Shown here: positions 3,001-64,000 of the stretch, piece after piece
Position numbering within the stretch: position 1 is the first letter of the stretch
Layout: every line of letters begins with the position of its first letter
Virus record (IMG/VR): IMGVR_UViG_3300045988_010311
Location: 1 to 64,000 of that record
DNA: 64,000 bases
Source of the DNA: a virus
Strand: one strand, 5' to 3'
The notes under the pieces: generated by a model
The model's input: the letters and a program-made list of their open reading frames with translations, nothing else
Database searches by the model: none
Told to the model about the DNA's origin: nothing
Made by a program: the position numbers and the translations under genes

Positions 3001-6000
3001 AAGCTGAATACCCTTGCAAAGTGGAATGGTGAGTATGTGCTTGCAAGTGAGGATGAGAATGGCAATGTAACTGTAAGACCCGAAAGAGTTATCTATCTGA
3101 CTGATGAGGTCAAGCCTTCTAACTGGATGAAGGACGTTGAGGAAATCATTGACCAGAAGATAGCCAAAGGGGAACTTACAGAGTATGATAAGACTGTCAT
3201 ACTTAAGAAGTGGGGTGATACTAATGTGGCCGATGCCCAGGCATTCAGAACATTGAAATCCTTTAGGGCAACCCAGATAGCTGCTGATATGTGGAGTGAT
3301 GATGCTGAAACAGCCTACAATAATATAAGGAATAACACATGGACTGCACAGGACTTTGTGGTTCTGTGGAATACCAGAAAGCCTTATCTTTATACTCAGG
3401 TTAACCAATCAGACAGGGTTGGTGGCATTATGAGACTGGCTGTACAGCATAAGAACTCTGAAATGATAATGCTCACACAAGCTATATTTGGTTCTATACT
3501 TCATCAATCTGGTAAACTTAAAGGTTTATCAGAGTTCATGGAGGATAGCAATAATAACATAGATGTAGCTATGTTTGGTACAGCAGTTAAGGTAGGGGGC
3601 CAAAGCTTCATAGACCTTAATGGTATCGAGAATGCAGAAGATGTTAAGAGTAAACTCCAGAAGGAAGTCTATATAGGAGGAACTGATGCTGTAAACCCTG
3701 AGGTTGTACATGAGTATAACTGGGATGATTATGGTATTCAGGTTGCTACTCCTGAGCATGGTATCAATGCCATTCAGCTTGTAGGTACTCAGATTAGAAG
3801 ACTTATAGGCACTGATATGGGGGCTGATGCTGTATTTAAGGTGGGTAATAAAAGTCTTACTAGAGACCAATGGAAGGACTACTTCAATGCAGTCAATACA
3901 GCTAATATAAGAGAAGCCTTTGAGAAGCTGGATAAGGAGTTCAGAGACCCTAAGAAGATTTCTGACTTGCTTATTAGTGAAATCAAGAGTAACTCTAGGT
4001 ACAGCAATGACCTTATAGAGGCTGTAACACTTGATGAGAATGGGCAGTTCAATATACCTATCTTTGACCCTTCACAGAGTCAGAAGATACAGGAGCTGCT
4101 TAACAGTATAGTTAAGTCTAGGATAGTGAAACAAAAGATAAATGGAGGTTCACTTATCCAAGCTACCGCATGGGCATTGAATGAGAAGGATAGACCTCAG
4201 ATTGTGTGGGGCACAGACAAGAATGGTCAGAAGTATATAAAGTATATGGAAGCTTACATTGCTTGCCCTGATGACAGACTGTATGAACTCCTGCTTGAAG
4301 ATGATGGAAGCATCAACATAAACAAGAAGGATAGTAAAGGCAACTACATTGTACCTGCTAAGTACAGAGAGGCTATTGGCTATAGAATCCCAACTGAGGA
4401 TAAGTACTCAATGATACCTATAAAGGTCAAAGGGTTCTTACCTAGACAGGTTGGTTCTGTAATCATACTTCCAGAGGAAATCACTACCACTACTGGTTCT
4501 GACTTTGACGTGGATAAAATCTACATGATGTATCATAGCTTGAACTTCAAGGACATCTATGACATCAAGGCTGCTTGGGATGCTTTTTATAAGAGCCACC
4601 CAGACATAGTAGAGTCCATTGAGGAGTCAAAGAGAGCGAACTTCAAGAGAGCTATGGACGAAGCTATTGAGAAGAATCCAGAAGCTGATTTGAGTCAGTA
4701 TGATATGGAAGAGTTATTTGAGAACTTCACCAGACCATACAAGAACTATGAGTGGACTGAAGATGCAAAAGAAGCATTCTCTGCTTGGTTCAATCCTATC
4801 AAGGATAGATACCTAAGCCATAGGTCTGTAGAGGTAGTTACTTATAATGACGCAGATATAGACCTCAGTGATTCTAATGAGAACAGAAAGGTTGATATAT
4901 ACAGACAAGCCAAAAAGAATACTAAATCTCAGAGAGACAGTATGATGATTGACTTGATGTGGTCAGTATTGACCAACCCTGATACTGTTGGAAAGATGAT
5001 TAATCCTGGTAACTTCGATGAGCAAAAAAGAAATGCCAGAATAGTCAATCTTCTAGACAGTCTTTCATTAGATGAGATTGATAAGCTGGGTGGTATTGAC
5101 AAGATACTTAACCTAAGTCTCAAAGAGGCTGACAAGATGTTGGAGAGGTATGGTAGGATTGTAAATCCTCTTACTCCTGATACTTGGATTACTTATCAAC
5201 AGAGGAATATGTCTGGTGCAGGTCTTGTGCCTATGGCAGCTACTCAGAATGCCTCTCATGCCTTAACGCAGTTTACTAAGAACTTTGGTTTGAAGAAGCC
5301 TTATAGGTTTATATTCAATGGTAAGAGATTAGGTTCTCTCAACTCTGTAAAGGATGCAGAGGGCAAGTTCATCTCTAGAAATGTATGTAGTTATCTGACT
5401 GCTTTTGTTGATAATGCCAAGGACCCTGTAGCAGGTGACTTGAACATTAACAACACTACAGCTAACCTAGCATTCCTATTGCTTAGAATTGGTAATTCTC
5501 CTATCACTACCAGTCTTATATTAAGACAACCTGCAATGATGAAGGTTATGAGGTATGTGAATAGTGGAAGATACTCAATGAGTCAAGCTATTGAGGAAGC
5601 TATGGAGGACTATAGAAAGAAAAGAGGTGACTCTTCTTATGGTGGTAAAACCATTAACTTCAACTTCACTGATGAGTGGTTAGCAGCTAACATAGCTGCT
5701 GAGAAGAATGGTGGTGATATTCACTCAAGCCATATAGAAGAAATGGACTTTGCAGTCAACCAGATAAAGGTTCTTGTCATGTTGAAGCAGATGAATACTG
5801 CTGCTGATGCTCTGGGAGATGTGGTAAGAGGAATAAGAAGTGACTCCCAAAGTGGTGGTGCTGGTGGTTCTATTGCTGCTGGTAATGGTAAGATAGATGG
5901 TCTCGAGCATATCCTAGATACAGCTGCTACTGATGCCAACTATCCTTTGCAGGGTCTTGACTTCATCAATGAGATGTACATGAGCACCAGTGAAGAGGAA

Positions 6001-29278: not shown

Positions 29279-29864
29279 GACATCTGCATCCAGTATTTAT
29301 ATTTTTACTTTTAACTCCCCTAAAGAACTTATCCCAATACTTGATAGCTTGTGCATAGTGACCTGTCCTTATGCTTAACTCAAGTGCCTTGAATCTGAGT
29401 AAGGCATCTATGAAGTTCTTTGGTATCTCACATTCATTATTTACCTCCTTTATATATCCAATCATAGACTGATATATAGGATATAAGTTACATACTACTC
29501 CAAGAGTAGTAGTATTATCCATACCACAAGGAGTATCAGGAGAAGGAGTACCCTTAACTATAACATATACAAAGAACAAAGTATCATTTATGACTACTCC
29601 CAAATCCTTACTATCCAGCTCAAGTCTTATTCTCTTAGGCTTAACATTATTGTCTATAGTCACCAGGGACTCTACAGATGGAGTATCTACCTCATACTTA
29701 TATATAGGCTTTGTACTTACACCATTCTCTATATAAGTATCTTGGGAATCTATAGCTACAGCATCAATATAGACATCCTTATAATAATCTAAATTCTTAA
29801 CAGAAGCATCTATTACAAGTTTACTGCCATCAAGAGAAACCCTTAGTTCATTAAAATCTACCAT
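29265..29864 (-). CDS. virion-module protein, function unknown (199 aa)
   Basis: ATG ORF and the first gene after the terminator at 29888-29915. Confidence 0.55.
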   Translation of the reverse strand: MVDFNELRVSLDGSKLVIDASVKNLDYYKDVYIDAVAIDSQDTYIENGVSTKPIYKYEVDTPSVESLVTIDNNVKPKRIRLELDSKDLGVVINDTLFFVYVIVKGTPSPDTPCGMDNTTTLGVVCNLYPIYQSMIGYIKEVNNECEIPKNFIDALLRFKALELSIRTGHYAQAIKYWDKFFRGVKSKNINTGCRCHGWT

Positions 29865-29887
29865 ACTTAAAACATTAAAGGGTTAAT

Positions 29888-29915
29888 AAAAAAGGGAGTA
29901 TTGAATATACTCCCT
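29888..29915 (-). terminator. intrinsic terminator after the 333-aa gene
   Basis: Stem AGGGAGTAT/ATACTCCCT with a 5-nt loop. A T-run follows on the - strand (plus-strand aaaaa at 29888-29892). Confidence 0.75.
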
Positions 29916-29930
29916 ATACTTAAGTTCCCT

Positions 29931-30932
29931 TTAAGCCCAAGCAGCTATTTGCTTGTCTGTAGGCAACTTTGCATTTACAGCAGTGATAAGAGCCTTCATT
30001 GCAGTATGACTGCCATCATCAACACAAACTAGTGTAATATCCTTCTCAGACTTCTGTACACTCTCATTACTGTCAGTGAAAGCATAGTGAATGTCAAGAG
30101 TATCATACTTAGCTGTTGGGTCTACTAGATAAGCAGTCTTGATAATATTAGGATAGCCCATCATTCTATAGTGGTCTCCTCTAGCACCCATACAGAAGTA
30201 CTCAAGGTCAGCAATATTATGACCATTATCTACATAATGTGCAGGAGTGGCCTTTTCTACCTTACCCCAGATGTAATCATCTCCATTGTAAGTAATCTCC
30301 ATAGGCTGCACATCAAACTTAATGTACTCTTGGGGCATAGTACCAAGTTCCCAACTCTGGATAGCCTCCTCAAGGATAACCCCAGTGTATGTGCCTGTCA
30401 AGTCAGCAGCCTTAGTAGCCTTCTTGACCTCTGTCTCTGAGCTTTCATCCTTTAGATATACAGTAAGTAGAGGTGTAGTATCTCTGGATACACTGGCTAC
30501 TATAGACAATGCCATAGCCTTGTAGAAATCAGATGCTGACATATTGGCACCTGCCTTCACATAGCCATACTTCTGGTTTGTGTCTTCCTCACCAAGACCT
30601 ATATACTGACTGAATACTATTCTTGTAATATACTCCTCTCCAGCCACAGGAGCATCTGATACACCACCATCAAGAGTAAGAAGTACTCTCTTCAAAGGAT
30701 GTCTCAGTGCATCAGACTTAGTAGCACTGACACTTATAATCTTACTGGTGTCAATGATGTCACTTCTAACTATACCTCCAGGTGACATGTATTGAAAATA
30801 CAAATGAGTCTTTGCTGTATCTCCCTTGGGTAGGATAGAGCCTGCTGCATCTGTAGCAAGAAGATTAGCTCCAGTCTTCAAGGTCTTTGCTACATACAGA
30901 TGTCTTACTTGATTGATACTAAAATTAGCCAT
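29931..30932 (-). CDS. probably abundant virion protein (333 aa), exact role unknown
   Basis: ATG ORF that is the last gene of its operon, directly followed by a strong terminator. Confidence 0.55.
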   Translation of the reverse strand: MANFSINQVRHLYVAKTLKTGANLLATDAAGSILPKGDTAKTHLYFQYMSPGGIVRSDIIDTSKIISVSATKSDALRHPLKRVLLTLDGGVSDAPVAGEEYITRIVFSQYIGLGEEDTNQKYGYVKAGANMSASDFYKAMALSIVASVSRDTTPLLTVYLKDESSETEVKKATKAADLTGTYTGVILEEAIQSWELGTMPQEYIKFDVQPMEITYNGDDYIWGKVEKATPAHYVDNGHNIADLEYFCMGARGDHYRMMGYPNIIKTAYLVDPTAKYDTLDIHYAFTDSNESVQKSEKDITLVCVDDGSHTAMKALITAVNAKLPTDKQIAAWA

Positions 30933-56363: not shown

Positions 56364-56381
56364 GTTTCTAACTATTTATAG

Positions 56382-56454
56382 TTTCGGGAGTAGGACTCGA
56401 ACCTACAACCTCCAGCTTATGAGGCTGGTTAGCTACCATTGCTAGCATCCCGAG
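56382..56454 (-). tRNA. tRNA-Met or Ile2 (anticodon CAT)
   Basis: By-eye cloverleaf: T-arm GTAGG-TTCGAGT-CCTAC and anticodon arm CCAGC-CTCATAA-GCTGG. The acceptor register is ambiguous by 1 nt, with a possible C1xA72 mismatch. Confidence 0.8.
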
Positions 56455-56631
56455 ATATTGCCAAGGTTTGGTATGGTACTTGGCATTGTAAGGTTAACCT
56501 TATACTTACACCCCCAATCATCTACACCTATAAAGCTGTTATTATAACAGGCCAGCTCCTGTTTGAGGCTTACCTAGTAGCATTGGGTGTTACTCTCTCT
56601 CTGTAGGTAAAACAGTTTCAGTAACTTGTAG

Positions 56632-56705
56632 AGCCTCCCCTCAGAATCGAACTGAGACTCCCTGTTTACAAGGCAGGTTTGCTAAACCATTAACACTAAG
56701 GAGGC
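56632..56705 (-). tRNA. tRNA-Thr (TGT)
   Basis: Acceptor GCCTCCT/GGGAGGC, T-arm CTCAG-TTCGATT-CTGAG, anticodon loop CTTGTAA. Confidence 0.8.
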
Positions 56706-56709
56706 ATAG

Positions 56710-56792
56710 TACCCCTGACAGGAGTTGAACCTGCAATCCCCAAGGGGCGTTGGTGTTTAAGACCAATGTGTATTCCATTCCACCACAGGGGC
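56710..56792 (-). tRNA. tRNA-Leu (TAA), type II
   Basis: Acceptor GCCCCTG/CAGGGGT, anticodon arm TTGGT-CTTAAAC-ACCAA, and a long variable arm. Confidence 0.85.
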
Positions 56793-56799
56793 ATTATAC

Positions 56800-57252
56800 T
56801 TAGTAAGGTCTCAAATCACATAACTCAAAGAGGTACTTGTATTTCAGTATATTATGTATGAATGTCTCACACTCGGACCTAATACCCGCATATAAAGTTC
56901 CTTCTGGGATATTCTCATAGAACTTAGTAGTTCCTGCCTTGACCTCATTGATGAAGTCAATAGCATTAAGAGCATCACTAGGAGTACCTTTAATCACATT
57001 AGGTTGCATATGTCCAAGCAATCCCTGATATTCCTCTGCCAATCCATCCTGATAGTCTGAGATAATACCTAGGAACTCATCTAGGTAAACATGAATATTC
57101 TTCTTAGGGGCTGCCCAATGCAGATTCTTACACTTAGTCTTCCAACCCTCCAGAAGGTTAATGAAGCTAATGAAGAATTGACTAGGGTTCTCATCTTGAG
57201 AAGGCTTGAACATCTCATCCATTAGCTGATTATCTAGAAAAACACTATCCAT
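56800..57252 (-). CDS. Dps/ferritin-like four-helix-bundle protein (150 aa)
   Basis: KNLHWAAPKKNIHVYLDEF...DYQDGLAEEYQGLLG parallels E. coli Dps [21 protein letters not shown]...LDTMAERAVQLGG, which carries the H, H, D, E ferroxidase ligands. It has its own promoter. Confidence 0.6.
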   Translation of the reverse strand: MDSVFLDNQLMDEMFKPSQDENPSQFFISFINLLEGWKTKCKNLHWAAPKKNIHVYLDEFLGIISDYQDGLAEEYQGLLGHMQPNVIKGTPSDALNAIDFINEVKAGTTKFYENIPEGTLYAGIRSECETFIHNILKYKYLFELCDLRPY

Positions 57253-57277
57253 TTCTCTTATTCTTTATTTGATACTG

Positions 57278-57285
57278 CAAAGTTA
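57278..57285 (-). promoter_or_regulatory. Bacteroidota-type -7 box (TAACTTTG + CA)
   Basis: The reverse complement of caaagtta matches the consensus. It lies 25 nt upstream of the ATG at 57252. Confidence 0.65.
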
Positions 57286-57338
57286 AGCTAAATATTTAAC
57301 CTGTGCAAGTAAATTACATTATTTAACTAAATTATCTG

Positions 57339-57421
57339 TACCCTCCAAGGGACTTGAACCCTTATGTACTTAGTACACTAGTTTCTAAGACTAGCCTGTA
57401 TACCCATTCCAGCAGGAGGGT
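57339..57421 (-). tRNA. tRNA-Leu (TAG), type II
   Basis: Acceptor ACCCTCC/GGAGGGT, anticodon arm CTAGT-CTTAGAA-ACTAG, long variable arm, T-loop TTCAAGT. Confidence 0.85.
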
Positions 57422-57431
57422 GTAAGCTCTC

Positions 57432-57845
57432 TTATAGAGAGCTATATTCTTTTGTAGCATCAAAGCTAGGGCAAGCTTTTGAGCTAAAGTCTCTGTGCCC
57501 ATGTATAGATGCTTGAGGGTACTTAGTCTTTAACTCCTTAAGTAACTTAACTAATGACTGCTTCTGCTGAGCAGTCCTAGTATCTTTAGGTGTCTTACCA
57601 TCAGAAGCACATCCTCCTATATAGCATACTCCAATAGAGTTAGCATTATGGCCAGCGCAGTGTGCACCTATAATAGACTCATATCTACCTGTATGTATAG
57701 AACCATCTCTATATATTACATAATGATAGCCTATATCAGAGAAGCCCCTTTGAAGGTGCCACTGTCTTATAGTATCTACACTATAGTCTTTACCTTCTGG
57801 TGTAGCACTACAATGTACTATTATTTCATTTATTTTTCTTGCCAT
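57432..57845 (-). CDS. N-acetylmuramoyl-L-alanine amidase, T7-lysozyme/PGRP (Amidase_2) type endolysin, 137 aa
   Basis: IIVHCSATPEG...IRQWHLQRGFSDIGYHYVI.RDGS...GAH..GHNANSIGVCYIGG...HGHRDF..KACPSFD aligns along its whole length with T7 gp3.5. The track GTG start at 57878 overlaps tRNA-Lys, so the ATG at 57845 is preferred. Confidence 0.92.
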   Translation of the reverse strand: MARKINEIIVHCSATPEGKDYSVDTIRQWHLQRGFSDIGYHYVIYRDGSIHTGRYESIIGAHCAGHNANSIGVCYIGGCASDGKTPKDTRTAQQKQSLVKLLKELKTKYPQASIHGHRDFSSKACPSFDATKEYSSL

Positions 57846-57869
57846 ACATATATTATAAAACTTATCATG

Positions 57870-57942
57870 TTCCCCCACTAGGAGTCGAACCTAGCTCTCA
57901 GGATTAAAAGTCCAGAGCATCCACCATCAATGCTTTGAGGGA
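57870..57942 (-). tRNA. tRNA-Lys (TTT)
   Basis: Acceptor TCCCTCA/TGGGGGA, T-arm CTAGG-TTCGACT-CCTAG, anticodon loop CTTTTAA. Confidence 0.8.
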
Positions 57943-58014
57943 GTGAAGCAGGGTCTTTTTAAGAGGTTTCATCTTATTCCTAGGAAAGATTTTTACCCTG
58001 CACACCCTCTAGTG

Positions 58015-58088
58015 TGCCTCCACAAGGACTTGAACCTTGAGTCCCCTGCTTAAGGGGCAGGTGCTTTAACCAATTCAGCTATAGAGGC
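58015..58088 (-). tRNA. tRNA-Lys (CTT), with unusual C at position 33
   Basis: Acceptor GCCTCTA/TGGAGGC. The anticodon arm CCTGC-CCCTTAA-GCAGG has a perfect stem, and the loop register gives anticodon CTT. Confidence 0.65.
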
Positions 58089-58094
58089 TTATAG

Positions 58095-58169
58095 ACTTGG
58101 AGGTGGGATTTGAACCCACGAATCACCAGTTTTGCAGACTGTGCCCTTAGACCACTCAGGTACTCCAAG
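58095..58169 (-). tRNA. tRNA-Cys (GCA)
   Basis: Acceptor CTTGGAG/CTCCAAG with a T73 discriminator, anticodon loop CTGCAAA, T-arm GTGGG-TTCAAAT-CCCAC. Confidence 0.8.
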
Positions 58170-58173
58170 ATAG

Positions 58174-58250
58174 TACTGGCAGAGGGACTTGAACCCCCAT
58201 GTGACCAATTACCCTTTCTAGACTGTATAAGAGTCAGGGGATATACCAGT
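58174..58250 (-). tRNA. atypical tRNA-like element (possible tRNA-Ile TAT lacking a canonical D-arm, or a pseudo-tRNA)
   Basis: Good acceptor (ACTGGTA/TGCCAGT) and T-arm (GGGGG-TTCAAGT-CCCTC). The only well-formed 7-nt loop hairpin is GACT-CTTATAC-AGTC, placed about 11 nt too close to the 5' end. Confidence 0.35.
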
Positions 58251-58257
58251 ATGCTGG

Positions 58258-58331
58258 GGTGTCTGATGGGAGTTGAACCCACACTACTTGGAGCCACAAT
58301 CCAAGGCTCTGACCAATTAAGCTACAGACAC
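58258..58331 (-). tRNA. tRNA-His (GTG)
   Basis: Acceptor GTGTCTG/CAGACAC with a C73 discriminator, D-arm GCTT-AATTGGTCA-GAGC, anticodon arm TTGGA-TTGTGGC-TCCAA. Confidence 0.85.
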
Positions 58332-58332
58332 A

Positions 58333-58406
58333 GTTCTGATGAGTGGACTCGAACCACTAGCTACTGCCTTATGAGAGCAGCTTTCTACCATTGAAATACA
58401 TCAGAA
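58333..58406 (-). tRNA. tRNA-Met or Ile2 (CAT), second copy
   Basis: Acceptor TTCTGAT/ATCAGAA, anticodon loop CTCATAA, T-arm AGTGG-TTCGAGT-CCACT. Confidence 0.8.
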
Positions 58407-58411
58407 TATAG

Positions 58412-58483
58412 TTGGCATACATGGAATTGAACCATGATTACTACCTTATCAGAGTAGCTTCCTAACCATTAGAAGATATGCCA
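58412..58483 (-). tRNA. tRNA-Ile (GAT)
   Basis: Acceptor TGGCATA/TATGCCA, anticodon loop CTGATAA, T-arm CATGG-TTCAATT-CCATG. Confidence 0.85.
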
Positions 58484-58489
58484 ATATAG

Positions 58490-58562
58490 CTAAGGTGGCA
58501 GGACTCGAACCTACAACTGCTGGTTTTGGAGACCAGTGTTCTACCTATTGAAATACACCTTA
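58490..58562 (-). tRNA. tRNA-Trp (CCA)
   Basis: Acceptor TAAGGTG/CACCTTA with a G73 discriminator, and anticodon arm CTGGT-CTCCAAA-ACCAG. Confidence 0.85.
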
Positions 58563-58567
58563 ATATG

Positions 58568-58642
58568 CTGGGATGATAGGACTCGAACCTACTGTCCCTT
58601 GATTAACAGTCAAGTGCTTTATACCACTTAAGCTTCATCCCA
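58568..58642 (-). tRNA. tRNA-Asn (GTT)
   Basis: Acceptor TGGGATG/CATCCCA and anticodon arm CTTGA-CTGTTAA-TCAAG. Confidence 0.85.
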
Positions 58643-58648
58643 ATATGT

Positions 58649-58720
58649 TGCTCCTATTAGAATCGAACTAATGACCTTTTCCTTGTAAGGGAACTGTTCT
58701 TAACCACTGAACTAAGGAGC
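58649..58720 (-). tRNA. tRNA-Val (TAC)
   Basis: Acceptor GCTCCTT/TAGGAGC, anticodon loop CTTACAA, T-arm ATTAG-TTCGATT-CTAAT. Confidence 0.8.
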
Positions 58721-58804
58721 ATTGATAGGGTAGTTTCTTTAACCTCTAACTACCAAAAGAGGGTTCTGACAAAAGCTCAACATTATGAAACACGGAAACT
58801 AATG

Positions 58805-58877
58805 TGGAGAATGAGGGACTTGAACCCTCTAATATAGCTTGCAAAGCTATCAGTTTAGCCAGTTAGCTTAATTCCCC
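58805..58877 (-). tRNA. tRNA-Ala (TGC)
   Basis: Acceptor GGGGAAT/ATTCTCC includes the G3:U70 Ala identity pair. The anticodon arm is ATAGC-TTTGCAA-GCTAT. Confidence 0.88.
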
Positions 58878-58882
58878 ATTAG

Positions 58883-58955
58883 TATGGGTACTTGGACTCG
58901 AACCAAGGACAACTACATCCCAAATGTAGCATTCTACCTACTGAATTACACCCAT
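58883..58955 (-). tRNA. tRNA-Pro (TGG)
   Basis: Acceptor ATGGGTG/TACCCAT and anticodon arm CTACA-TTTGGGA-TGTAG. Confidence 0.82.
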
Positions 58956-58961
58956 ATATTG

Positions 58962-59046
58962 CGGAGAGATGAGGTCCCGACCCCCAAGCATTTCACTGCC
59001 CCCATTGTTTTCAAGACAAGTCCCAGTCCCACTGAGTTATCTCTCC
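58962..59046 (-). tRNA. tRNA-Ser (TGA), type II, with a non-canonical T-loop
   Basis: Acceptor GGAGAGA/TCTCTCC, anticodon loop CTTGAAA, and a long variable arm. The T-loop reads GTCGGGA rather than TTCRANT. Confidence 0.7.
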
Positions 59047-59097
59047 ATTTGCCTACCTACCACTGTAGGATAGGACTTTGGTTTTGTTATAAGTGTG

Positions 59098-59170
59098 CAG
59101 ACTATGAGGGAGTTGAACCCTAACCTTCACATTGACAGTGTGATATGCAAACCACTACACTACATAGTCT
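59098..59170 (-). tRNA. tRNA-Asp (GTC)
   Basis: Acceptor AGACTAT/ATAGTCT and anticodon arm TCACA-CTGTCAA-TGTGA. Confidence 0.85.
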
Positions 59171-59180
59171 ATATAATTAG

Positions 59181-59252
59181 TACCCCCTGATAGAATCGAA
59201 CTATCATTCTAAGTTTAGAAGACTCATGTATTATCCATTATACTAAGAGGGC
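59181..59252 (-). tRNA. tRNA-Arg (TCT)
   Basis: Acceptor GCCCTCT/AGGGGGT, anticodon loop CTTCTAA, T-arm GATAG-TTCGATT-CTATC. Confidence 0.8.
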
Positions 59253-59260
59253 ATCTCTAG

Positions 59261-59332
59261 TTGGGACTAGAGGACTCGAACCTCTGCTATAAGAGCCAAA
59301 ATCTCATGTGACTGCCACTACACCAAGTCCCA
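59261..59332 (-). tRNA. tRNA-Gln (TTG)
   Basis: Acceptor TGGGACT/AGTCCCA (U1:A72), anticodon loop TTTTGGC, T-arm AGAGG-TTCGAGT-CCTCT. Confidence 0.8.
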
Positions 59333-62398: not shown

Positions 62399-62720
62399 GA
62401 AGTATGTCGTCTACGACACCACAGGTAATCCTGTTGGTGTACCATTCAAAACTATTAGAGAGGCTGAAGAGTATAAAGCCATCAACAGGAGATTTGATTG
62501 GACTGTGAGACTGGTAGACATAAACATATGGAGAGAGAGCACTCCTAAACAAAGGGGTGCTCTTGCTTTCTGTGAGGATGTCTTGGATATTCAATTTGAA
62601 GGCAACAGACATGATTTCTATGAAGTGTCTGACTTCTTGTCTGAATATCTTGAAGAAGCCAAGCAGACAGCTAGAGAGTTATCGTGTTTTTATTCATCTT
62701 ATACATGGAACAATGATTAA
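62391..62720 (+). CDS. hypothetical protein (109 aa)
   Basis: ATG ORF overlapping the upstream gene by 8 nt and the downstream gene through ATGATTAA. Confidence 0.5.
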   Translation: MSRKYVVYDTTGNPVGVPFKTIREAEEYKAINRRFDWTVRLVDINIWRESTPKQRGALAFCEDVLDIQFEGNRHDFYEVSDFLSEYLEEAKQTARELSCFYSSYTWNND

Positions 62721-62925
62721 AGTAAGTAAATGTGTATTATTGTACGCAACAATAATATGCAGCATCCTATTCATAGTAGGTGCTGACGTGATAATGTCAG
62801 TAGGTATTCAATATCTTCTGATATTTGGGTTAGTTTGTGTTGCTCTAATTTATCTATCTTATAAATTAATATCCAAGAAGGAGTTTGATTCCTTCACAGG
62901 ATTTAACATTATAGATAAATTGTAG
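62713..62925 (+). CDS. two-TM membrane protein (70 aa from the ATG at 62713)
   Basis: The track ORF at 62557 lies in the same frame but overlaps the 109-aa gene. The ATG at 62713 gives MIKVSKCVLLYATIICSILFIVG.... Confidence 0.45.
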   Translation: MIKVSKCVLLYATIICSILFIVGADVIMSVGIQYLLIFGLVCVALIYLSYKLISKKEFDSFTGFNIIDKL

Positions 62926-62999: not shown

Positions 63000-63293
63000 A
63001 TGAGAATTATAGTAGTTTTTATATTTGCTTGCATTAGTCTTATAGCTAATGCACAGCAATTCAAGCGTGAGGGTAATACCTTCGTGCAGGATACCACAAA
63101 GACTTTTAGAAAGTCTGAGGGTAAAGAGACCAAATACACATACAAGGATAAGAACAATAAGGTATATCCTATATTCATTACCTCTTCTGGAGCTGTGTAT
63201 ATAAACAAAATATCAGCAAAGACAGGTAAGGAATACAGAATGTACCTTCCCAAGGGTATCAAGGAAGCTATTGCCAAGGAGATAAAGCAATGA
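63000..63293 (+). CDS. secreted/periplasmic small protein with signal peptide (97 aa)
   Basis: The N-terminus is MRIIVVFIFACISLIANAQQ. Confidence 0.5.
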   Translation: MRIIVVFIFACISLIANAQQFKREGNTFVQDTTKTFRKSEGKETKYTYKDKNNKVYPIFITSSGAVYINKISAKTGKEYRMYLPKGIKEAIAKEIKQ

Positions 63294-63355
63294 TTATAAC
63301 AATATTTGCTTGGCTATTTGTAATAGTTTGGGTATTAAAAATGAAAGACCAATGA
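63290..63355 (+). CDS. 21-aa hydrophobic micropeptide candidate
   Basis: The translation is MIITIFAWLFVIVWVLKMKDQ, with ATGA overlaps at both ends. Confidence 0.35.
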   Translation: MIITIFAWLFVIVWVLKMKDQ

Positions 63356-63447
63356 TAATACTTGGAATTTTAGAGATAATATTCTATGGTTTTGGTACAT
63401 TCTTGTTTTGTATCTTGCTATGGCATGTCTTTTTTAACGATAAATAA
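63352..63447 (+). CDS. 31-aa hydrophobic micropeptide candidate
   Basis: The translation is MIILGILEIIFYGFGTFLFCILLWHVFFNDK. It has an ATGA overlap upstream and a 1-nt gap before the next ATG. Confidence 0.35.
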   Translation: MIILGILEIIFYGFGTFLFCILLWHVFFNDK

Positions 63448-63448
63448 G

Positions 63449-63682
63449 ATGTCTGAGCTTCTTGTTACAATCCTTAACAAACTAGGTTTGGGTAAAGGAT
63501 GTAGAGTATACAACATATCTAACATGAAAAGATATATGTATGATGTGTTTGGAGACTCTATAAAGGTAGATATAATATCTCCTATATCTGTCAGTCTTGA
63601 AGCAGGTAGTAATAAAATCATTATCATTTATGCGATAGTGAACAGTACGATAAAGAGTCTGACTATTAAAGAGGTGTTATAA
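63449..63682 (+). CDS. hypothetical protein (77 aa from the ATG at 63449; the track alternative starts at 63386)
   Basis: It is in the same frame as the 98-aa track ORF. The shorter start avoids overlap with the coupled micropeptide ORF. Confidence 0.45.
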   Translation: MSELLVTILNKLGLGKGCRVYNISNMKRYMYDVFGDSIKVDIISPISVSLEAGSNKIIIIYAIVNSTIKSLTIKEVL

Positions 63683-63689
63683 ATGGCTC

Positions 63690-63775
63690 ACTCCCTTAGC
63701 TCAGTTGGTTCCGCAAGGCTTGAGAGCATCGGACTTTTAATCCGAGGGTCATGGGTTCGAGTCCCATAGGGAGTA
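63690..63775 (+). tRNA. tRNA-Lys (TTT) with a 13-nt insertion in the D-loop (86 nt)
   Basis: Acceptor ACTCCCT/AGGGAGT, anticodon arm TCGGA-CTTTTAA-TCCGA, T-arm ATGGG-TTCGAGT-CCCAT. The D-arm reads GCTC-AGTTGGT[TCCGCAAGGCTTG]A-GAGC. Confidence 0.6.
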
Positions 63776-63792
63776 CTATTCATTTCATTCAA

Positions 63793-64000
63793 GGGGCTGT
63801 ATTTGGTTTTGACTGGTGGCTACTTGGTATGAGGACATGCAGAGACTGATGGAGAGACATCAAAACTTTAGGTGGCAACAGAATTTCTGCACCTGTAGCT
63901 CTTGCTGCTTAAGCAATCTACTGAGTTAGTCACTGACTTGGAAACAGAATAGTGACAAGACAAGATTTCTTGCATAGATAAATGCAAGTGGTGGGCTATG
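63793..64000 (+). ncRNA. ssrA: tmRNA (SsrA), 5' part, truncated by the window end
   Basis: GGGGCTGTATTTGGTTTTGAC matches the conserved tmRNA 5' end. The tag mini-ORF GGC AAC AGA ATT TCT GCA CCT GTA GCT CTT GCT GCT TAA (63874-63912) encodes GNRISAPVALAA followed by a stop. Confidence 0.75.

Follow-up and report, generated by a model that had tools for sequence, protein, structure and literature searches.

A one-piece tmRNA gene in a crAss-like phage and its relatives

The 64,000-nt stretch of viral DNA analyzed here (positions 1 to 64,000 of IMG/VR record IMGVR_UViG_3300045988_010311; hereafter, the window) ends inside a gene for transfer-messenger RNA (tmRNA, or SsrA). Its positions 63793–64000, on the + strand, make up the first 208 nt, counted from the 5′ end, of a one-piece tmRNA (ssrA) gene that is 320 nt long and is cut by the window end, as had been proposed from the letters of the window alone, and the complete gene could be read from contigs identical to the window end. 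We consider it likely that this gene encodes a functional phage tmRNA that would work with host factors, a judgment that combines high confidence in an intact tmRNA with lower confidence in the role during infection that we infer for it from sequence.

crAss-like phages rank among the most abundant human gut viruses, and the gene content of the window assigns it to one of them, in agreement with the original prediction: the Pfam matches of its open reading frames (ORFs) comprise the CrAss tail ring proteins 1, 2, and 3/4 and the tail hub proteins A and B, and its structural block shares about 79% DNA identity with that of PhiCrAss001-like Bacteroides phages.

Completion of the gene and position of the tag frame

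With the gathering thresholds of Rfam applied, tRNAs are the only matches in the window, because the tmRNA gene is cut. A permissive search of positions 63600–64000 with the tmRNA model RF00023 gave a 3′-truncated match covering exactly 63793–64000 (20.2 bits, E-value 2.4e-6), in which the acceptor strand, a D-loop-like motif, the strand of the long helix, the stem of pseudoknot 1 (PK1), and the tag region were aligned at high posterior probability. The score of this fragment lies below the gathering score of the model (47 bits) because the 3′ third of the gene is missing. A second match, to the tmRNA_permuted model (63718–63912; 26.1 bits, also below the gathering score of 47), was rejected as an artefact, as it joins the T-arm of the neighboring tRNA to the 5′ half of the tmRNA.

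The missing 3′ 112 nt lie past the window end and were read from two contigs found by an exact-protein look-up, in ENA and Logan contigs, of the 97-aa ORF at window positions 63000–63293; exact-protein look-ups of the ORFs at 63386–63682 and 62557–62925 returned no match. Both contigs, L058 (ENA ERZ27296287 k119_153294; 103,194 bp) and L059, match window positions 63000–64000 at 100% identity (0 mismatches over the terminal 1001 bases) and continue into the complete 320-nt gene, which occupies positions 4794–5113 of L058. Its 3′ end reads ...GGACAGGGGTTCGACTCCCCTCAGCTCCA, followed by CAATTAAC. The 3′ tRNA-like half had been expected outside the window, with a downstream limit of about 400 nt, and the gene is indeed completed over the next 112 nt. 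The T-arm is GGGGTTCGACTCCCC (AGGGG-UUCGACU-CCCCU, with a loop of the GGUUCGAnUCC type), and the acceptor stem has 7 bp, GGGGCUG pairing with CAGCUCC (CAGCTCC in the DNA), followed by the discriminator A. The G3:U70 pair that the original prediction had told us to look for, together with the T-arm and the acceptor partner, is thus present on the extension. No CCA is encoded at the 3′ end.

The other proposed check, a covariance model run on the extended contig, was equally favorable: the complete gene scores 95.8 bits with RF00023 (E-value 5e-37) over model positions 1–374, that is, the full model, well above the gathering score, and ARAGORN also reports a tmRNA. The gene is continuous over its 320 nt, with no group I intron in its T-loop. 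The last 38 bases of the window had no exact copy in the metagenome contigs scanned, and an exact search with 51 nt of the tag region gave 4 IMG/VR contigs of 97–101 kb, each of which has a full-length RF00023 match (83–91 bits) and none of which is identical to the window.

The elements recognized in the window, including the adjoining tRNA, are the following.

63690–63775, + strand: neighboring tRNA with anticodon loop CUUUUAA (Lys UUU); Rfam tRNA match of 66.3 bits, with a 14-nt insert.
63793–63799, + strand: 5′ strand of the acceptor stem, GGGGCUG; G3 pairs with the U of CAGCUCC-A, which lies outside the window, at the 3′ end of the gene in L058.
63807–63842, + strand: 5′ strands of the helices linking the tRNA-like domain to the mRNA-like part (RNAalifold helices 2–4).
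63847–63862, + strand: hairpin UGAUG-GAGAGA-CAUCA at the position of pseudoknot 1, aligned by Rfam to the PK1 stem.
63869–63870, + strand: UA dinucleotide at −5/−4 of the resume codon, the frame-setting signal (columns T77 and A78, invariant in phage and host).
63874–63912, + strand: tag frame, from resume codon GGC to stop codon UAA, supported by its translation and by the Rfam consensus tag.
63931–63954, + strand: hairpin CACUG...UAGUG 3′ of the tag (RNAalifold helix 8).
63969–63988, + strand: hairpin CUUGCAU-AGAUAA-AUGCAAG in a reduced pseudoknot region, read from the sequence and not formally counted.

The rechecked coordinates place the start of GGGGCTGTATTTGGTTTTGACTGG at 63793, where it had been reported. 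The 5′ strands of the linking helices correspond to gene positions of about 15–50, end in CAUGC, have a high Rfam posterior probability, and find their 3′ partners outside the window. At the site of the last hairpin (63969–63988), relatives carry CCCUGUU...AAUAGGG.

The tag frame is preceded by AUCAAAACUUUAGGU and reads GGC AAC AGA ATT TCT GCA CCT GTA GCT CTT GCT GCT TAA (63874–63912, gene positions 82–120), which encodes the peptide GNRISAPVALAA followed by a stop. A tag-like frame ending in ALAA and a stop had been noticed at this very place, and its assignment is supported by Rfam, which puts the consensus tag at gene positions 82–120, and by the UA at −5/−4, invariant in all phage and host tmRNA sequences compared. 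The frame combines a resume codon, the UA signal, an in-frame stop, and an Ala-rich hydrophobic C-terminus, and at the homologous position in the related phage cr106_1 ARAGORN reads the tag DNTYRVAA. For the window-type gene itself, ARAGORN proposes a different tag, ASGGLC, at gene positions 192–212; we rejected it as a miscall because relatives have an indel that disrupts this frame (alignment A3).

Conservation of structure and tag in a phage family

Relatives were gathered with a degenerate 31-nt motif of the PK1 region, which returned 46 IMG/VR contigs, about two-thirds of them 80–101 kb long. Among the 48 motif-bearing loci, which include the GenBank records of cr106_1 and cr128_1, 47 have a complete gene whose 3′ end complements its own 5′ end with the G3:U pair, and the remaining one runs off its end. 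Judged by these sequences, the tmRNA family is conserved in at least 47 crAss-like viral contigs. The tags fall into DNTYRVAA (15), GNTSYRVAA (12), GNTYRAAA (11), and GNRISAPVALAA (4, in addition to the window), with 5 singletons. Every tag variant ends in AA or VA, and most members of the family end in RVAA or RAAA, not ALAA. Changes in the tag region include a synonymous one in an Ala codon (GCT/GCA) and one from stop codon TAA to TGA.

The secondary structure was analyzed on 36 distinct intron-less sequences (alignment A3), with controls in which pairing partners were slid by 1–3 columns. RNAalifold predicted 68 pairs, 17 of which show compensatory changes (no more than 5 with slid partners); pairing holds in 99.0% of cells, versus about 45% in the controls, and 87 cells have double changes, versus at most 13. 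The G3:U pair is invariant (36/36), while the acceptor variants CUG/CAG, CAU/AUG, and CUA/UAG compensate for one another, so that positions 6–7 covary. Helices 2–4, which form the long helix, comprise 30 pairs, 6 of them with compensatory changes, and at least 98.6% of their cells are paired. Helix 8 (CACUG...UAGUG) has 5 pairs, 100% paired, with 1 compensatory change, and the T stem shows five pair combinations within the family, with compensatory changes at 4 of its 5 pairs. A pseudoknot near the 3′ end is supported by covariation: in its stem, ACCA/UGGU is replaced by ACUA/UAGU, with 95.8% of cells kept and 10 compensatory cases (U-A to C-G).

The hairpin at the PK1 position is invariant in the 36 sequences, and a compensatory change (A-U to U-A) is found in Kehishuvirus tikkala. 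By eye, we found a hairpin only and no second PK1 stem; a candidate pairing the loop AGAG with a downstream CUUU was dropped, as relatives do not preserve it. In the middle region, which is poorly aligned to RF00023, host tmRNAs have about 75 nt more, and the pseudoknots of the phage RNA are reduced.

Two further features of the alignment were observed. Between the hairpin that follows the tag and the next conserved hairpin, some relatives have a variable domain of 65–150 nt (L003:1548–1932, L004:3465–3867; A3 columns 178–330), whose flanks AAGGTCA...TGACCTT are able to pair; it gives rise to three size classes in the family, of about 300–320, 380, and 450 nt, and the window type is without it. 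In addition, two direct copies of RAGAC flank the PK1-position stem (window 63840–63862; A3 columns 49–67) and change jointly and in the same direction (CAGAGAC..GGAGAGAC versus CAAAGAC..GGAAAGAC), these changes not being complementary.

Comparison with host tmRNAs and with those of other phages

A scan of 185,579 species-representative genomes, with a search pattern that also fits the window-type gene, returned host tmRNAs of 395–397 nt from B. faecis, B. xylanisolvens, B. reticulotermitis, two Bacteroidales MAGs, and Muribaculum, as well as one further locus in which ARAGORN finds no tmRNA. Apart from that locus, the matches were of the host type only, and no phage-type copy was found among the 185,579 genomes. 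The phage gene shares with Bacteroides and Muribaculum ssrA (for example, B. faecis L051:4039–4433) the one-piece form, the tRNA-like domain with G3:U70, and the lack of an encoded CCA, together with CAUGCAG, AUCAAAACUUUA, UAAGCAUGU, and the resume codon GGC; its tag ends in ALAA-UAA, with the same codons as in the Bacteroides tags. The two differ in length (395 nt in the host and 320 nt in the phage) and in architecture, as the host gene has a longer PK1 region and the full set of pseudoknots, whereas the phage gene has a hairpin at the PK1 position. The host tags are GETNYALAA or GENNYALAA, and the expectation that the phage tag would depart from the Bacteroides type was correct. One detail of the original prediction was mistaken: the motif given as typical of Bacteroidota, GGUUUUGAC, is what the phage reads, whereas the Bacteroides sequences fetched read GGAUUUGAC and Muribaculum reads GGCUUUGAC.

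Overall, the identity of the phage gene to the Bacteroides and Muribaculum tmRNAs is 53–55% (about 54%), while these two host types share 73% with each other, and the longest identical runs between phage and host 3′ ends, compared by eye, are about 8 nt. These values bear on the possibility that the gene is a decaying, nonfunctional copy of a bacterial ssrA or the remnant of an attachment site, a fragment of host ssrA having been named from the start as what would overturn the tmRNA assignment. Such an origin would fit the frequent use of tmRNA genes as integration sites by mobile elements (PMC11915505), and the copy in K. tikkala does have a disrupted T stem and acceptor strand. However, integration remnants consist of 3′ segments only, whereas the gene in L058 is complete from G1 to the discriminator A, and no integrase family was found among the 41 small ORFs scanned. 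Because it is only about 54% identical to host tmRNAs, the gene is neither a recent capture from the host nor an attachment-site remnant, and because compensatory changes maintain its structure across 36 sequences, it is not decaying. This explanation is largely refuted, and we give it hardly any weight. The gene is intact and a member of the tmRNA family, and selection has preserved its structure and tag frame in a phage lineage.

Genes of this kind were already known, since phage tmRNAs have been reported and one is annotated in GenBank as "transfer-messenger RNA, SsrA" (29657–29960) in the uncultured phage cr106_1 (MT774378/NC_055871; Mahstovirus faecalis, Steigviridae). This phage belongs to the same family, and its tmRNA gene occupies the same place within a small-ORF block, with 1–2 tRNAs before it and a TROVE gene farther downstream. 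The cr106_1 tmRNA is 75% identical to the window type and falls into the same compact size class, with a length of 302 versus 320 nt, an Rfam score of 74.3 bits, and an acceptor stem GGGGCAU/AUGCUCC in place of GGGGCUG/CAGCUCC; its tag is DNTYRVAA, whereas the window-type tag is four residues longer and ends in ALAA like host tags. The window tmRNA adds to the known phage tmRNAs and is distinctive in its longer, ALAA-ending tag and its compact architecture. Our literature search on tmRNA in crAss-like phages found nothing beyond mentions of methods or tools.

Several relatives (L013, L031, L034, L044, and cr128_1, L007:3001–4317, MT774392 7824–9140) have a tmRNA gene of 1317–1318 nt, in which a group I intron (RF00028, 86 bits) separates GGGUU from CGAAU at T-loop position 3; only these cr128_1-type relatives have it. 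A 186-aa ORF on the − strand, with zf-FCS as its sole Pfam match, follows the intron core. Introns at T-loop position 3 have been reported only from the class Bacteroidia, with a maximum of 1116 bp for the intron form (PMC11915505), which the 1317-nt phage gene exceeds. The intron form is not annotated in GenBank (cr128_1), and ARAGORN makes no tmRNA call for it, nor for the copies in L003 and L004 (385–403 nt) and in L002.

In K. tikkala, a cultured phage (OQ198717, about 87740–88040, − strand; L006:3005–3305), the 5′ half of the gene is intact, with the tag DNTYRVAA; the 3′ strands of the T stem and of the acceptor are broken (...GGGTTCGAGTCCAACCATCCCCA), no Rfam call was obtained, and no 3′ exon was found within 3 kb. 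PhiCrAss001-type phages gave no match to the tmRNA gene. The broken copy and this absence of a match indicate that the gene is dispensable for at least some relatives. GenBank overlays the K. tikkala copy with two hypothetical CDS, which are spurious protein calls over a degenerate tmRNA gene. Taken as a set, the four tag families, three size classes, intron form, and broken copy are natural variants for the study of tmRNA in Bacteroides infection.

Among other phages, huge phages carry tmRNA and SmpB beside large tRNA sets (PMC7162821). The tmRNAs of huge phages and mycobacteriophages are, like the window type, phage-borne alongside large tRNA sets, whereas the genome of the window phage is only about 100 kb (PMC7162821; PMC11915505). 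A conserved, structurally maintained tmRNA in a crAss-like lineage shows that phages of roughly 100 kb, and not huge phages alone, invest in ribosome rescue; the general picture of trans-translation is unchanged. RefSeq viruses were processed for the 2025 tmRNA database paper, in which phage entries are named, including the tag-less form of DS6A (PMC11915505). DS6A tmRNA is without a tag frame, whereas the window type has a full and conserved one.

Partner protein, proposed function, and genomic surroundings

No SmpB was identified in the phage DNA examined, which amounts to about two-thirds of a genome of roughly 103 kb: none of the 41 small ORFs of the window and downstream flank has a Pfam match to SmpB, and tblastn with an E. 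coli SmpB sequence found nothing in the window or in any fetched locus. With the same query, the matches listed in the GenBank phage set (25 of 68) were prophage ends, Lak phages, and other huge phages, with no crAss record among them. Huge phages such as Lak also carry SmpB. Because no SmpB was found, we presume that host SmpB is used, and the function of the gene would then depend on the diverged phage RNA still fitting the host protein.

In the reading we prefer, the tmRNA would be transcribed together with the upstream tRNA, cleaved at G1 by host RNase P, and trimmed at its other end by host 3′ nucleases. The host CCA-adding enzyme would supply the CCA, a step proposed because neither phage nor host tmRNA genes encode it, and host alanyl-tRNA synthetase would charge the RNA with alanine via G3:U70. 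With host SmpB and EF-Tu, the charged tmRNA would enter ribosomes stalled on broken or stop-less mRNAs; translation would move to the resume codon GGC, add (A)GNRISAPVALAA, and end at UAA, which would release the ribosome and mark the peptide for proteolysis via its C-terminal LAA. The phage may benefit because ribosomes stay available during infection. Ribosome rescue during takeover and a phage-specific degron had been suggested as possible roles in the original prediction.

The same RNA might instead act mainly against host trans-translation, competing with it or reprogramming it by titrating host SmpB or by swapping the tag for one of different proteolytic fate. This is in line with the difference between GNRISAPVALAA and the host tags GETNYALAA and GENNYALAA, with the RVAA or RAAA ends, rather than ALAA, of most tags in the family, and with the failure to find a phage SmpB, which implies that the RNA must compete for the host protein. 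Moreover, expression of the minimal DS6A phage tmRNA in E. coli reportedly inhibits the endogenous tmRNA there (PMC11915505). Unlike the DS6A form, however, the present gene still has its resume signal, stop codon, and complete tag frame, and the window-type tag retains the host-like C-terminal ALAA, which argues for the ordinary degradation route. We regard a mainly competitive role as unlikely.

The small ORFs among which the tmRNA gene sits form a + strand block, oriented divergently from the structural genes and the tRNA array, which are on the − strand; the label "early strand," used in the original prediction, reflects gene orientation only. As had been noted, the tmRNA gene lies next to a tRNA gene, which ends 17–18 nt upstream depending on the caller (17 nt upstream with the ARAGORN end at 63776, leaving a 16-nt spacer) and with which it is probably cotranscribed. 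ARAGORN assigns a two-base anticodon to this tRNA (tRNA-???), which we rejected in favor of the Rfam alignment. Its D-loop holds a 12–14 nt insertion, UUCCGCAAGGCU. An alignment of the tRNAs indicates that it is the second Lys(UUU) of the window, as the 18-tRNA array (56381–59332, − strand) contains Lys(ttt) at 57869–57942 and Lys(ctt) at 58014–58088. A scan around the gene for sigma-70 promoters and intrinsic terminators found fewer sites than in shuffled sequences, the consensus used not being of the Bacteroides or crAss type.

The presence of this second Lys(UUU) tRNA with a D-loop insertion, directly beside the tmRNA and in spite of the Lys(ttt) and Lys(ctt) of the array, together with a TROVE gene about 2.5 kb downstream in L058, L057, and cr106_1, could suggest that tmRNA, extra tRNA-Lys(UUU), and Ro60/TROVE make up one early counter-defence module against anticodon nucleases and mRNA interferases. 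In other systems, phages are documented to carry tRNAs that evade defences cleaving tRNA-Lys. The association is, however, positional, the neighboring tRNAs of other family members are Arg or an odd Ile-like tRNA and not Lys, and tmRNA rescues mid-message stalls only if the mRNA is cut. We consider such a module very unlikely. A speculative proposal, to which we assign a low but somewhat higher probability, is that the tmRNA, the altered tRNA-Lys(UUU), and Ro60/TROVE might form an early-expressed island for RNA damage control that would sustain translation when Bacteroides defences cleave tRNAs or mRNAs, with tag families tracking hosts. If so, the tags GNRISAPVALAA, DNTYRVAA, GNTSYRVAA, and GNTYRAAA would reflect adaptation to the SmpB and protease systems of these hosts. 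The reading of a functional tmRNA that would rescue ribosomes with host factors remains the one we favor.

Other features of these genomes were observed. The tRNA array of the window is broken by two ORFs of about 150 aa each (56800–57252 and 57432–57878), and the small ORFs scanned include Pfam matches to HNH_3 and His-Me endonucleases. In every relative examined, the tmRNA is followed at about 2–2.5 kb by a TROVE/Ro60-like gene that includes a vWA domain (L058:7571–8294+, L057:7014+, L005:2990–3937, L001:6565–7986), and in L057 an HNH/NUMOD4 endonuclease gene is inserted directly before this TROVE gene. Relatives also have over-long tRNAs of 131–139 nt, which probably contain introns (L003:4770–4908, L004:6276–6406), and others of 86–90 nt, in which the additional sequence lies within or close to the anticodon arm (L001:3904–3991, L004:3299–3384, L006:834–923). 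Finally, a group I intron (RF00028, 51 bits) is found at L005:12282–12663, about 11 kb downstream of the tmRNA gene of that contig.
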